Source of the DNA: a virus
Taxonomy: Duplodnaviria > Heunggongvirae > Uroviricota > Caudoviricetes
IMG/VR virus record: IMGVR_UViG_2744054964_000002
Coordinates: 1-43,041 of that record
Direction: 5' to 3' (one strand)
DNA: 43,041 bases
The notes under the pieces were generated by a model that saw only the letters and a program-made list of their open reading frames with translations, did no database searches and was not told the DNA's origin. The position numbers were made by a program, and so were the translations under genes. Shown piece by piece: positions 34,769 to 37,018 of this stretch (the stretch's first letter is position 1; each line of letters opens with the position of its first letter).

Positions 34769-36689
34769 TTCTTTTGATTTTGAGCTGGTGGCCAGCGACC
34801 AGGTTAGCGAGGCTATAGACCGCATTAATGAGGCTGTCCGTGACCTGGAGCCGAAGCTAGATAAAACTAAAGAAGGGCTCAAGTTAGGCGGTCAGGAAAC
34901 AGCCGACGGACTGAGCGGTTTTATTTCTCGCCTCGAGAATATGTCGAAGAGCGCGCGGGATAACGTGCAGTTTATTGGCGACATGGTTCCCCCTCTGAAA
35001 ATGGTGGGGGAGCTCACGGGGAAGATGGGGGCGCTGGGGTTAGCCGGTGCTGCCGGCTACGGACTGAAACAGGTCGCTTATGGATTTCGGGAGGCATCCC
35101 GTCAGGCCTATAATCTTGATGTCTCGGCAAAAAATGCGGGAATGCGCGTTGACGATTTTACCCGACTTTCCGGGGCAATGCGTATTCTTGGGGCAGACAG
35201 CGAGAGCGCTAATGCATCAATAGAAGGTATTTTCAAAGCATTCAATGAGGCTGCCAGTGGTAAAAACGAGGGGGTTATGGCAGCGATGGCGCAAATTGGT
35301 GCTCAAATCCAAAAAAACAGCGATGGTTCAGTAAATACCCTTAAAACACTGGAGTCTATCGCAAAAATTTTTCCAACCTTGCGACCTGAACAGCAGAAGT
35401 CCGCCGCTGATGCACTTGGGCTGACGCCCGAATTGCTGGCGCTAATGCGTGACGGTGAGCGCATGAAAAAGCTGCTGGCGAAATCGGATGAATTTGGTCT
35501 GACTGTGGATCCGGCACTAAATCAGCAATTGAGTGAAGTGAACGGCACTATGAATGAGCTCAGCGCATCCTGGGATGGTCTGTGGCAACGTTCAAAAAAC
35601 AAGGCACTTAAGACCATTCTTTCGGATGGTTCAGTCAAAGACGGCCTTGAAGGTGTTACCGATCTGTTCACTAATGGTGATTTTACTGGGCTGTCTCATG
35701 CTCTCGGTTTTATCAACAGCAATGATGCTGAGAAACTACGGCGCATTCAGAACGATAAGGAACTTTATAACAGCTTACCCCGCAGTGAACGTGGGCAGGT
35801 TGACGCGGGTTTCATGACTGATGCTGTAAGAAAGCGGTACGATGCGAATTACCGCGCGACCGATTCTGCGATTCAATTGCAGAATGACTTATCCGCTATC
35901 AGCCAGCCACAATCCAACGTTGCACGCGGCAATGTTCCTTACGGGGAAACAAGGAATAACGCAATTGGCTTCAGAAATAATAATCCCGGTAATTTGAGAG
36001 TTGCAGCAAACGCAACGGGTAAAAATGGCGGATTTTCTACCTTTGCGAATGATGCCGACGGAAGAACTGCAATGGCGAGACAGCTGATGTTGTATGGTGA
36101 CAGGGGGAATAATACTCTGGATGGGATTATTCATACCTATGCTCCGCAATCAGAGAATAATACTCGTGCATATATTGACTCCGTCTCAAAAGCCACTGGA
36201 TATGGAGCCAAAGAGCAAGTAAATCTGCACGATCCGGAAACATTAAAAACGATAATGGCAGCCATGATTAAACATGAGAATGGCGCACAACCTTATACTG
36301 AGGAACAACTGCTAAACGCCATCCAGACCGCCATTACTGATGATCGGTGGTCAGGGAAGAGAAATCCGGATGTGCTGGCCCAGCAGCGGTATGACATTAT
36401 CTCAGGTTCGCAAACTGGAAATCGTGACTCCAGCACTCTTAGTAACCCGAGTGATGAAACTGATATTCTCTCAGGCTCGCAGAACAGAAATCGGGAATCC
36501 ATCATTCTGAGTGATACGGGTAAGAAAAGTGATGAAAGTGTACTCGGCGACAATCTGGCTAAGTCTCTTAAAGAGGCAATGTCAGAACAACCACTTAAGC
36601 TCGAAATCACAATGGTTAATGATAAGGGTGAGCGAAAAACCTATAATGCGGAAAATAATGGCAGAATAACAACGGCCATGAATTACTGA
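34761..36689 (+). CDS. Tail tape measure protein
   Basis: 642-aa ORF after the chaperone pair; Ala/Gly-rich helical N-terminal two-thirds; C-terminal ~270 aa are compositionally distinct (AT-rich, Asn/Gly-rich). Confidence 0.8.
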   Translation: MSNSFDFELVASDQVSEAIDRINEAVRDLEPKLDKTKEGLKLGGQETADGLSGFISRLENMSKSARDNVQFIGDMVPPLKMVGELTGKMGALGLAGAAGYGLKQVAYGFREASRQAYNLDVSAKNAGMRVDDFTRLSGAMRILGADSESANASIEGIFKAFNEAASGKNEGVMAAMAQIGAQIQKNSDGSVNTLKTLESIAKIFPTLRPEQQKSAADALGLTPELLALMRDGERMKKLLAKSDEFGLTVDPALNQQLSEVNGTMNELSASWDGLWQRSKNKALKTILSDGSVKDGLEGVTDLFTNGDFTGLSHALGFINSNDAEKLRRIQNDKELYNSLPRSERGQVDAGFMTDAVRKRYDANYRATDSAIQLQNDLSAISQPQSNVARGNVPYGETRNNAIGFRNNNPGNLRVAANATGKNGGFSTFANDADGRTAMARQLMLYGDRGNNTLDGIIHTYAPQSENNTRAYIDSVSKATGYGAKEQVNLHDPETLKTIMAAMIKHENGAQPYTEEQLLNAIQTAITDDRWSGKRNPDVLAQQRYDIISGSQTGNRDSSTLSNPSDETDILSGSQNRNRESIILSDTGKKSDESVLGDNLAKSLKEAMSEQPLKLEITMVNDKGERKTYNAENNGRITTAMNY

Positions 36690-36822
36690 TCACTGTCGTC
36701 ATTTCGTTAAGGAAGAAGTTATGAATGAAAAAGTTTTTGGAGCAAAAGCCATTTAGACTCCAAAGGTTTTTGCGCTTGTTTACCTGGTAATTGGCATTTT
36801 CCTCGTTTTTTCTGTTGTCTCA

Positions 36823-36969
36823 ATGAATTTCACGGCGATTACGATATCGGTGGTAAGTGCATTGCTTTTACGTGTGCTTTATGAGTTCCTAATGAACTCA
36901 TTCAAGGCGACTGAGCATCTTTACAGGATCGCCGAATCTCTTGACCGTAATGGATCCAGCGATAAATAG
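36823..36969 (+). CDS. Possible small hydrophobic peptide (48 aa), not in ORF track
   Basis: Hand-translated MNFTAITISVVSALLLRVLYEFLMNSFKATEHLYRIAESLDRNGSSDK; AT-rich; followed by a strong terminator. Confidence 0.25.
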   Translation: MNFTAITISVVSALLLRVLYEFLMNSFKATEHLYRIAESLDRNGSSDK

Positions 36970-36992
36970 ATAAGTCATTTCAGTGCATATGT

Positions 36993-37018
36993 AAACCGCC
37001 GACATGGCGGTTTTTTTA
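36993..37018 (+). terminator. Rho-independent terminator inside the tail gene cluster
   Basis: ACCGCC-GACAT-GGCGGT stem followed by TTTTTTT. Confidence 0.65.

Follow-up and report, generated by a model that had tools for sequence, protein, structure and literature searches.

The stretch of DNA analysed here in full, hereafter the window, is the 43,041-nucleotide virus record IMGVR_UViG_2744054964_000002 of IMG/VR, and it is a lambdoid Escherichia coli prophage with a Mu-like contractile tail. We concentrated on positions 35880-37018, which hold the 3' part of the tape measure protein (TMP) gene, a small open reading frame (ORF) and a hairpin just ahead of the next tail gene (Table 1). The TMP carries, embedded in its chain, a domain related to the catalytic domain of a phage endolysin. 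Other prophages have a different wall-cleaving module at the same place on an otherwise near-identical protein, and the exchanged block also takes in a cargo gene that is interrupted in the window by a stop codon.

Prophages on several complete E. coli chromosomes are 100% identical to the window over 34300-37100, and 33 of 5,426 genomes contain a match. As annotated by the Prokaryotic Genome Annotation Pipeline (PGAP), the lambdoid prophage of NZ_AP021894 is inserted between kch and yciI and encodes an integrase, RecET, a LexA-family (cI-like) repressor, the antiterminator Q, two holins and a GH19 endolysin, together with a lambda-like head and a Mu-like contractile tail. Its tail genes run in the order DUF2635 protein, sheath, tube, chaperone, TMP, gp43-like DNA circularization protein and gp44-48-like baseplate proteins. 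A megablast search of 34300-37100 against a phage collection gave zero matches; apart from distant phages, only prophage forms of the element are known.

Table 1. Features of the locus in window coordinates, followed by cargo ORFs found at the same junction in related loci (coordinates of the respective locus).
Feature	Position	Strand	Remarks and basis
TMP gene, 642 amino acids (aa)	34761-36689	+	'hypothetical protein' in PGAP; phrog_2276, synteny, BZS1 TMP homology
Conserved TMP backbone, residues 1-376, predicted mostly helical	34761-35888	+	100% identity in P0233 and P0235; 35888 is the last position homologous to L099 DNA
Exchangeable mosaic block: muralytic module, linker, TMP C-terminus, cargo gene	35889-36992	+	blastn against L099 and L098
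Enc34-type (PHA02564) lysozyme-like domain, TMP residues ~393-528	35937-36344	+	phmmer, PHROGs, AlphaFold2 (AF2), Foldseek
NNPGN motif	35979-35993	+	domain sequence
Y460	36138-36140	+	alignment to 7Q47
E465	36153-36155	+	56-sequence alignment
Y471	36171-36173	+	alignment to 7Q47
E506, predicted catalytic	36276-36278	+	alignment to 7Q47
Variable Ser/Asn-rich linker, predicted disordered, about TMP residues 549-591	36405-36533	+	low predicted local distance difference test (pLDDT) scores; indels among relatives
Conserved TMP C-terminal helix and beta-hairpin (LKLEIT...GRIT..Y)	36534-36686	+	kept in Enc34-type and SLT-type TMPs
Candidate sigma-70 promoter for the cargo gene, in the TMP 3' end, ATGATA-17-TATAAT	36619-36647	+	10/12 consensus match
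Disrupted 82-codon gene, two-helix membrane protein	36721-36969	+	in-frame translation, intact homologues, phrog_12129
48-aa ORF	36823-36969	+	C-terminal remnant of the 82-codon gene; no upstream Shine-Dalgarno
Intrinsic terminator, stem AAACCGCC/GGCGGTTT, loop GACAT, 7 T	36993-37017	+	folding and conservation
Ribosome-binding site (RBS) GGAGG (37024-37028) and Mu gp43-like DNA circularization / baseplate hub gene	37024-38436	+	ATG 37033 (PGAP start); PF07157, E 2.8e-30
L006: 244-aa ORF	L006 2619-3353		signal-peptide-like N-terminus
L026: 243-aa ORF	~3210-3940		signal-peptide-like N-terminus
L021: 188-aa ORF and 60-aa ORF	~3505-4070		HEAGH (metalloprotease-like) motif in the 188-aa ORF
L028: 155-aa ORF in a 611-nt insert		opposite	signal-peptide-like N-terminus; hairpin lacking
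L099: 165-aa ORF	L099 2488-2985		signal-peptide-like N-terminus

The tape measure protein and its embedded lysozyme-like domain

By homology and position, we identify the 642-aa product as a tape measure protein. It matches phrog_2276 (E 1.3e-155) and aligns over its full length, at 38% identity, with the annotated TMP of Serratia phage vB_SspM_BZS1. Its gene lies between that of the tail assembly chaperone, probably of the frameshifting type, and the Mu gp43-like DNA circularization gene, which encodes the baseplate hub, so that both the family homology and the gene position typical of tape measures are present. The Pfam family PhageMin_Tail stays sub-threshold (13.7 bits versus a cut-off of 33.2). 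In the preliminary description, made from the letters alone, a helical N-terminal part was set against the last ~270 residues. Helices are indeed predicted there, at low confidence only: the AF2 model of the full-length protein has a mean pLDDT of 47, and we call this part predicted helical and nothing beyond.

The last ~270 residues had been taken for an appended C-terminal globular domain, possibly cell-wall-acting, and a domain search and structure prediction of this part bear out the link to the cell wall. Among PDB sequences, phmmer detected 9vvp_L ('Gp29', E 2.3e-20) and 7q47_A (E 3.7e-9). In PHROGs, TMP residues ~393-525 match families annotated as endolysin, head protein and tail injection transglycosylase, with phrog_873 at E 3e-41, and tblastn retrieved the endolysins of phages Enc34 (E 6e-10) and BSPM4 (E 2e-9). 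The structure 7Q47 is the catalytic domain of the ORF39 endolysin of Hafnia phage Enc34, a member of the family PHA02564 (Cernooka et al., 2022; PMC8943055). The Enc34 enzyme is muralytic in vitro on outer-membrane-permeabilised E. coli, Pseudomonas and Hafnia, and Glu131, Tyr95 and Trp79 were proposed as its catalytic residues (PMC8943055). In our alignment these correspond to E506 (within KHENG), Y471 (RAYID) and Y460 (HTYAP) of the TMP, respectively. Tyr471 is invariant in an alignment of 56 diverse homologues, and Glu506 as well as Glu465 (SENNT) are found in at least 90% of them. When the window TMP is taken together with those of eight E. coli prophage relatives (L002-L009), the domain with its catalytic Glu and Tyr is present in all nine.

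The predicted fold agrees with these matches. An AF2 model of TMP residues 374-642, built with the 56-sequence alignment, comprises a compact domain with block-mean pLDDT of 93-98 over model residues 31-150 (~TMP 404-523), a mostly disordered segment (model residues 179-217) and a C-terminal helix with a beta-hairpin. Foldseek gave 7q47_A as the sole significant match of the domain model in the PDB (E 1.2e-7, prob 1.0, TM-score 0.67, root-mean-square deviation 2.7 Å), and the model, which is a prediction and not a solved structure, matches the all-helical lysozyme alpha-lobe-like fold of 7Q47. We conclude from sequence and predicted fold that TMP residues ~393-528 are homologous to the catalytic domain of Enc34 ORF39, and the domain is most likely an active enzyme, predicted from this homology to cleave peptidoglycan. 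The string NNAIGFRNNNPGNLRVAANATGKNGGF quoted in the preliminary description is present at TMP residues 399-425. The proposal of an independently folding domain holds; its supposed place at the C-terminus does not, as the domain is embedded and followed by ~115 residues that include a conserved C-terminal element.

We found the domain in 8,466 representatives of 50%-identity clusters at E <= 1e-3 and in 2,388 at E <= 1e-10. Most of the best 150 matches have a length of 450-660 aa and carry the domain around residues 300-600, and in all five proteins tested from this size class the match to phrog_2276 covers most of the sequence. The domain also turns up in internal virion or head proteins, in a baseplate hub protein and in stand-alone endolysins. 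A role as the lysis endolysin of the window's own prophage is ruled out by the separate holin and GH19 cassette.

Behind the domain lies the linker, where pLDDT mostly stays under 50 (model residues 179-217). It varies among relatives: it is 23 aa shorter in L003, of different sequence in L005, longer in L006 and shorter in L007-L009. Within the linker (36393-36530, TMP ~545-590) we noticed two imperfect copies of the motif I[IL]SGSQ..NR[DE]S, one of which is spanned by the 23-residue loss in L003, and this suggests that tape measure length varies by a repeat-mediated process. At the DNA level, no repeats were detected in 34700-37100 by Tandem Repeats Finder, the linker copies being too diverged. 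The last ~45 residues are conserved in the alignment of the window TMP and L002-L009, and are modelled by AF2 with moderate confidence as a helix (model residues 219-236) and two strands (241-246 and 252-257).

The terminator and the broken cargo gene behind the tape measure gene

A strong terminator had been reported to interrupt the tail operon at this point. The hairpin itself (stem 36993-37000 and 37006-37013, T run 37011-37017) is well founded: AAACCGCC-GACAU-GGCGGUUU with its U7 tract has a folding energy of -11.7 kcal/mol, which none of 200 shuffled sequences reaches. With its 8-bp stem (5 G-C pairs) and 5-nt loop, co-oriented with the genes and intergenic, it has the canonical features of an intrinsic terminator. 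We regard it as real because it is conserved in relatives; the pattern scan of the late region, with 16 sites against 19.6 +/- 5.1 expected from shuffles, is not above chance and alone is no evidence. A hairpin with a T run stands directly 5' of the RBS of the gp43-like gene in 12 of 14 other related loci, with cargo gene or without, and also in L098 and L099. These hairpins have GC-rich stems of 7-9 bp, loops of 3-6 nt and an immediate run of 5-9 T, the T run being present in all 12, and fold at -6 to -15 kcal/mol. Their loops vary, as do their stems, which include CCGCC/GGCGG, CCCGC/GCGGG, CCUCGCC/GGCGGGG and GCCGU/ACGGU. The hairpins were folded one sequence at a time; MAFFT with RNAalifold on 13 sequences mis-registered the stems and recovered 3 pairs only. 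As the hairpin is conserved with different stems and irrespective of cargo, it is a structural feature older than the cargo. Rfam returned only sub-threshold, chance-level matches in 36500-37200.

With just 6 nt between the T run and the GGAGG of the gp43-like gene there is no room for a downstream promoter, so that the baseplate genes would be transcribed by read-through. The terminator probably does not block their late expression. A Q antiterminator gene lies upstream of the late operon in the window's prophage and in BZS1. In lambda, Q makes RNA polymerase terminator-resistant, and by analogy late transcription plausibly reads through the terminator by Q antitermination. Partial attenuation or mRNA stabilisation by the hairpin is possible.

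The hairpin could instead serve mainly to stabilise or process mRNA 3' ends, or to regulate translation of the next gene. Its distance of 6 nt from the RBS would suit such a function, as would its retention in loci where no cargo gene needs terminating, and within a 66-nt context its fold does not stand out from shuffled sequences (z = -1.3). We nevertheless consider this unlikely, given that every canonical terminator feature is there, down to the T run in all 12 loci, and that the possible functions of a hairpin are not mutually exclusive. A terminator that late transcription passes remains our preferred reading.

Between the TMP gene and the terminator, the preliminary description listed a possible 48-aa hydrophobic peptide. 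The ORF exists, but it is what is left of an 82-codon gene broken by an amber mutation (TGG>TAG). The larger gene begins with ATG at 36721, preceded by the RBS AAGGAAG (36709-36715), and contains a single in-frame TAG at codon 12 (36754-36756). Intact 82-aa homologues occur in Enterobacter and E. coli at the same site between the TMP and gp43-like genes; P0068 and P0069 are 96% identical and have Trp12 (TGG) where the window has TAG, a difference confirmed on the DNA. In the intact protein, which matches phrog_12129 end to end (E 3.4e-11), two hydrophobic helices are combined with a charged tail. DUF4282 is matched below threshold even by the read-through 82-aa sequence (23.8 bits versus a cut-off of 27), and on this sequence evidence we assign the protein to phrog_12129 and call it DUF4282-like only. 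The 48-aa ORF matches just the C-terminal halves of the two families (DUF4282 52-85 of 86, phrog_12129 42-77 of 79). With two helices and a charged tail the protein might be thought a holin; its position, its presence/absence pattern and the separate holins of the prophage speak against this.

The cassette (36690-36992, 303 bp) is at least 99.7% identical in all 22 complete E. coli genomes that carry it. The TAG is present in 3/3 of the cassette classes inspected in complete E. coli genomes, PGAP annotates nothing at the cassette in 21 of the 22, and contigs in IMG/VR hold both alleles. In L002 and 13 other E. coli genomes the amber cassette is 100% identical where the TMP 3' region next to it has diverged by 5.5% (35880-37100 being 94.5% identical), and this suggests recent spread or homogenisation by recombination.

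We also observed an 81-aa homologue from Enterobacter cloacae (P0073) whose first 15 residues, MKKFLEQKPFRLQRF, equal a +1-frame reading that begins at a second ATG, at window position 36725. Thereafter the usual frame is resumed, as though the GGTTTTTGCG run had gained one T and the amber codon were thereby skipped. Judged by the protein sequence alone, the broken gene seems to have been rescued here by a compensatory change; P0075 and P0077 seem to be additional variants with frameshifts or deletions.

Could the 48-aa ORF, or the whole amber allele, be a functional small membrane protein and not a dead remnant? The allele is widespread and nearly invariant, even where the neighbouring tape measure DNA has diverged, and the 81-aa product regained by P0073, if correctly read, hints at selection for restoring the protein. 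Against this, ATG 36823 has no Shine-Dalgarno, one of the two hydrophobic helices is all that the ORF retains, and the unit conserved in the family is the full protein of 79-86 residues. PGAP calls no gene there in 21/22 genomes, while annotating other pseudogenes in this prophage. We find a functional product quite unlikely, and keep to a gene inactivated at codon 12.

A candidate sigma-70 promoter for this gene lies within the 3' end of the TMP gene. Its -10 element reads TATAAT in the window, L002, L003, L010 and L006, all of which have cargo, and TATAAC, with a synonymous Asn codon, in L007, L008 and L022, which have none, and in L021, which has other cargo.

The cassette is missing in L004 and L005, whose flanks are 98.8-99.4% identical, and in L007-L009. 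Cargo ORFs unrelated to it are found at the junction in L006, L021, L026, L028 and L099, four of them with a signal-peptide-like N-terminus. The cargo inserts have a GC content of 0.35-0.41, and the window cassette with its junction 0.41, compared with a late-region mean of 0.527. PADLOC, Pfam and PHROGs gave no functional annotation for the cargo proteins. A moron is an independently acquired cargo gene in a phage operon, the first example being the gene of a small inner-membrane superinfection-exclusion protein by the TMP gene of HK97 (PMC3594210). The window cassette fits this description in its presence or absence between near-identical phages and its deviating GC. As to the moron's own promoter and terminator, the terminator predates the insertion, and for a promoter there is just the consensus-level candidate at 36619-36647.

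A bolder view would make the terminator a fixed 'landing pad' and the junction a safe hot spot for cargo, with envelope-directed cargo tied functionally to the muralytic module and both travelling as one block. We give this view rather little credence. If it were true, the cargo could block superinfecting phages with the same tape measure or lysozyme type, acting as membrane or periplasmic factors.

Exchange of the muralytic module within a mosaic block

To survey the module independently of its own sequence, TMP residues 1-373 alone served as query, and the 120 best homologues (74-100% identical) were compared. About 73 carry an Enc34-type module, about 46 a classical SLT lytic transglycosylase and 1 is a short fragment; none of these 120 is a full-length protein without a muralytic module. 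The SLT alleles match PF01464, with or without PF13406, and have the motifs QESGG, GLMQI and YYNGG. Two of them, P0233 and P0235, share residues 1-376 with the window TMP at 100% identity before passing into SLT, and at the conserved C-terminus TMPs of the two types become alike again. The prophage of E. coli ES8 (L098) has its sheath, tube and chaperone under the same protein accessions as the window's prophage, and in its TMP SLT occupies residues 404-495.

The limits of the exchange are sharp at the DNA level. In blastn against the SLT-type prophage L099, homology is lost at 35888 and regained at 36993, which is the start of the hairpin; against the SLT-type L098 it is regained at 36994. 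The muralytic module is, from these sequence comparisons, exchangeable between otherwise near-identical tape measures, and the interval 35880-37018 singled out in the preliminary description proves to be essentially one exchangeable block, whose left edge at 35888/35889 lies within 10 bases of 35880. The SLT-type alleles (WP_130078013.1 of E. coli ES8 and WP_063929856.1 of ABWA45) share with the window the backbone, 74-100% identical over residues 1-373, the conserved C-terminus, the flanking genes, the terminator and the position of the module. They differ in having a Pfam SLT (GH23) module and a length of 601-627 aa, and they are annotated by PGAP, whereas the Enc34-type allele is a 'hypothetical protein'. 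A continuous coiled coil with no independent fold, and a composition common to all relatives, had been named as findings that would count against an added domain. The former is contradicted by the compact fold; the latter is partly the case, since the close Enc34-type relatives all have the domain, yet the SLT-type alleles show that it is exchangeable.

The exchange also bears on whether the Enc34-like domain is catalytically dead and only a peptidoglycan-binding module, a structural plug or a spacer. Tape measure domains can be purely structural, the activity of this one is predicted from homology, and one of the three proposed catalytic positions is changed. However, the catalytic Glu and Tyr are kept in 9/9 TMPs, and conservation at these two positions extends through the 56-sequence alignment. 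Moreover, the module that replaces the domain at the same place is SLT, with its own catalytic-Glu motif (QESGG...GLMQI), and the alternation of two catalytic modules, each with a catalytic Glu, argues for selection on bond cleavage rather than bulk. A dead domain is accordingly improbable, and we retain the reading of a wall-cleaving one.

The last ~270 residues had further been described as AT-rich and Asn/Gly-rich. GC is indeed low in 35880-36689, at 0.447 against 0.501 for TMP residues 1-373, which places the segment among the lowest 2.7% of 810-bp windows taken from the late region. Asn is doubled (11.2% in residues 374-642, 5.6% in residues 1-373), but Gly is not raised (8.2% versus 9.4%), and the GC drop begins already near 35100, with a minimum of 0.38-0.40 at 36450-36900. 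We attribute the distinct composition of 35880-37018 to its being, in essence, a single mosaic block. It is hardly credible that the demands of the domain for certain amino acids, with AT-rich codons for Asn, Lys, Ile and Tyr, would alone produce it without horizontal exchange: GC does fall gradually ahead of the domain, but GC at third codon positions falls too (0.58 at residues 1-120, 0.39 in the domain), the breakpoints at 35888 and 36993 are set in prophages otherwise 94-99% identical, and either module occurs on backbones 100% identical over residues 1-376.

Outside the block, we made some observations on neighbouring parts of the prophage. Near the 3' end of the tail assembly chaperone gene (34341-34619) there is a canonical -1 slippery heptamer, T_TTT_TTG, at 34598-34604. 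The -1 frame is open up to 34768, overlapping the TMP start, and takes in a 44-aa ORF (34634-34768) that matches phrog_10636 (E 2.3e-23). By comparison with P2 E/E' and lambda G/GT, the -1 frame past 34598 is probably a programmed-frameshift long form of the chaperone; this form has no PGAP annotation. In the early region, PGAP places a 92-nt 'tRNA-Ile' at ~14010-14101 on the - strand (NZ_AP021894 2638993-2639084). An ARAGORN scan of the whole window detected no tRNA, and in 13500-14600 no Rfam match passed the gathering threshold. PGAP also lists pseudogenes at ~13310-13787 and ~8240-8446 (positions derived from record coordinates): a class I SAM-dependent methyltransferase gene with a frameshift, and a gene for a hypothetical protein that contains an internal stop. 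They fit a prophage that is piling up inactivating mutations.

Proposed function of the locus and relation to known systems

We consider it quite likely that the explanation holds as a whole, that is, an exchangeable block with a muralytic TMP domain and a decayed moron, closed by a conserved terminator that is read through. In this scheme the muralytic domain would follow the helical region of the TMP that determines length, and precede its conserved C-terminal element. By analogy with other tape measures, the C-terminal end would be at the baseplate end of the tube and leave first. Contraction of the sheath would expel the TMP into the periplasm, where the domain would open the peptidoglycan locally and let the tube and TMP reach the inner membrane; lysis from within would be left to the holins and the GH19 endolysin. 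We infer TMP ejection and wall cutting on entry from T7 gp16, T5 Pb2, the TM4 TMP and a Kayfunavirus ejectosome protein. The 82-aa gene would be a low-GC moron acquired just past the TMP stop and since inactivated by the TGG>TAG change. Its product may once have served at the inner membrane in lysogen conversion or superinfection exclusion, as HK97 gp15 does, a suggestion we make with low confidence. The terminator would stop transcription that is not antiterminated, including that from cargo promoters in the lysogen, and be transparent to late transcription.

Several points weigh against parts of this explanation. Pfam has no family and no model for the domain, so there is no curated family cut-off to pass. 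The position of Enc34 Trp79 is taken by Tyr460, although the change is conservative and the residue is still aromatic. Three or six copies of a globular domain of ~135 residues would have to fit in the tube lumen. The identity of the amber allele across diverged flanks could mean that it is tolerated or even favoured, not simply decaying. The promoter candidate, a consensus match with a small, phylogenetically non-independent correlation, is suggestive but weak. Finally, PADLOC gave zero matches for the 82-aa cargo protein.

The closest relatives of the domain as an enzyme are Enc34 ORF39 and M4Lys of Salmonella phage BSPM4, which have the homologous domain and fold, the equivalents of Glu131 and Tyr95, and the NNPGN motif. 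They are stand-alone lysis-cassette enzymes with a C-terminal two-helix membrane anchor, whereas the window's domain, ~27-29% identical to theirs and with Tyr for Trp79, is embedded in a 642-aa TMP of a prophage that has its own GH19 endolysin. The best PDB sequence match is the gp16-type ejectosome or internal virion protein 'Gp29' of a T7-like Kayfunavirus (PDB 9VVP). There too the domain is borne in the virion by an ejected protein, but it stands at the N-terminus of a podovirus core protein of ~1295 aa whose remainder is unrelated. Its presence in this ejection protein gives virion-borne use in the entry phase a precedent. A functional analogue is the N-terminal lytic transglycosylase domain of T7 gp16. 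T5 Pb2 and a motif of the mycobacteriophage TM4 TMP are muralytic modules of siphovirus tape measures that aid passage of the genome across the wall; they belong to other enzyme families and to non-contractile tails.

Among whole tape measures, that of BZS1 (Mup42-like; MT843275) is a full-length homologue with ~60% identity in the domain, the same gene order and the same terminator-then-RBS junction, in the lambdoid genome, with Q and a separate lysozyme, of an isolated, viable myovirus. It differs in having no cargo gene at the junction and in its terminator stem, GCCCGC/GCGGGU. Phage Mu gp42 has the corresponding position in a syntenic tail module, but no detectable similarity (best BLASTP E 0.87), and is separated from gene N by a 4-nt gap with no terminator; 'Mu-like' therefore applies to the tail module and not to the TMP. 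Gene 15 of HK97 resembles the cargo gene in encoding a small inner-membrane protein by the TMP gene in the tail operon, with deviating GC and a terminator downstream (PMC3594210). It is YebO-like and precedes the TMP gene; the window gene follows the TMP gene, is DUF4282-like and is broken, and we claim no sequence relationship between the two.

A virion-associated peptidoglycan hydrolase in a tape measure, a moron and a terminator inside an operon are all known principles, and current views are not overturned: the locus is a tidy but ordinary case of phage mosaicism that is under-annotated. The gap in annotation is a concrete one, as Enc34-type TMPs are called 'hypothetical protein' by PGAP where SLT-type ones are labelled correctly, and Pfam is without a model for the domain. 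The domain is a candidate enzybiotic module for Gram-negative bacteria, and the junction is a well-defined system for terminators and Q antitermination that allow safe cargo insertion in late operons. For the biology of these phages, the two wall-cleaving modules that alternate on 100%-identical backbones, together with the lack of any full-length member without a module among the best N-terminal homologues, amount to a natural experiment. Read from these sequences, it indicates that this type of tail needs wall-cutting carried by the tape measure itself.

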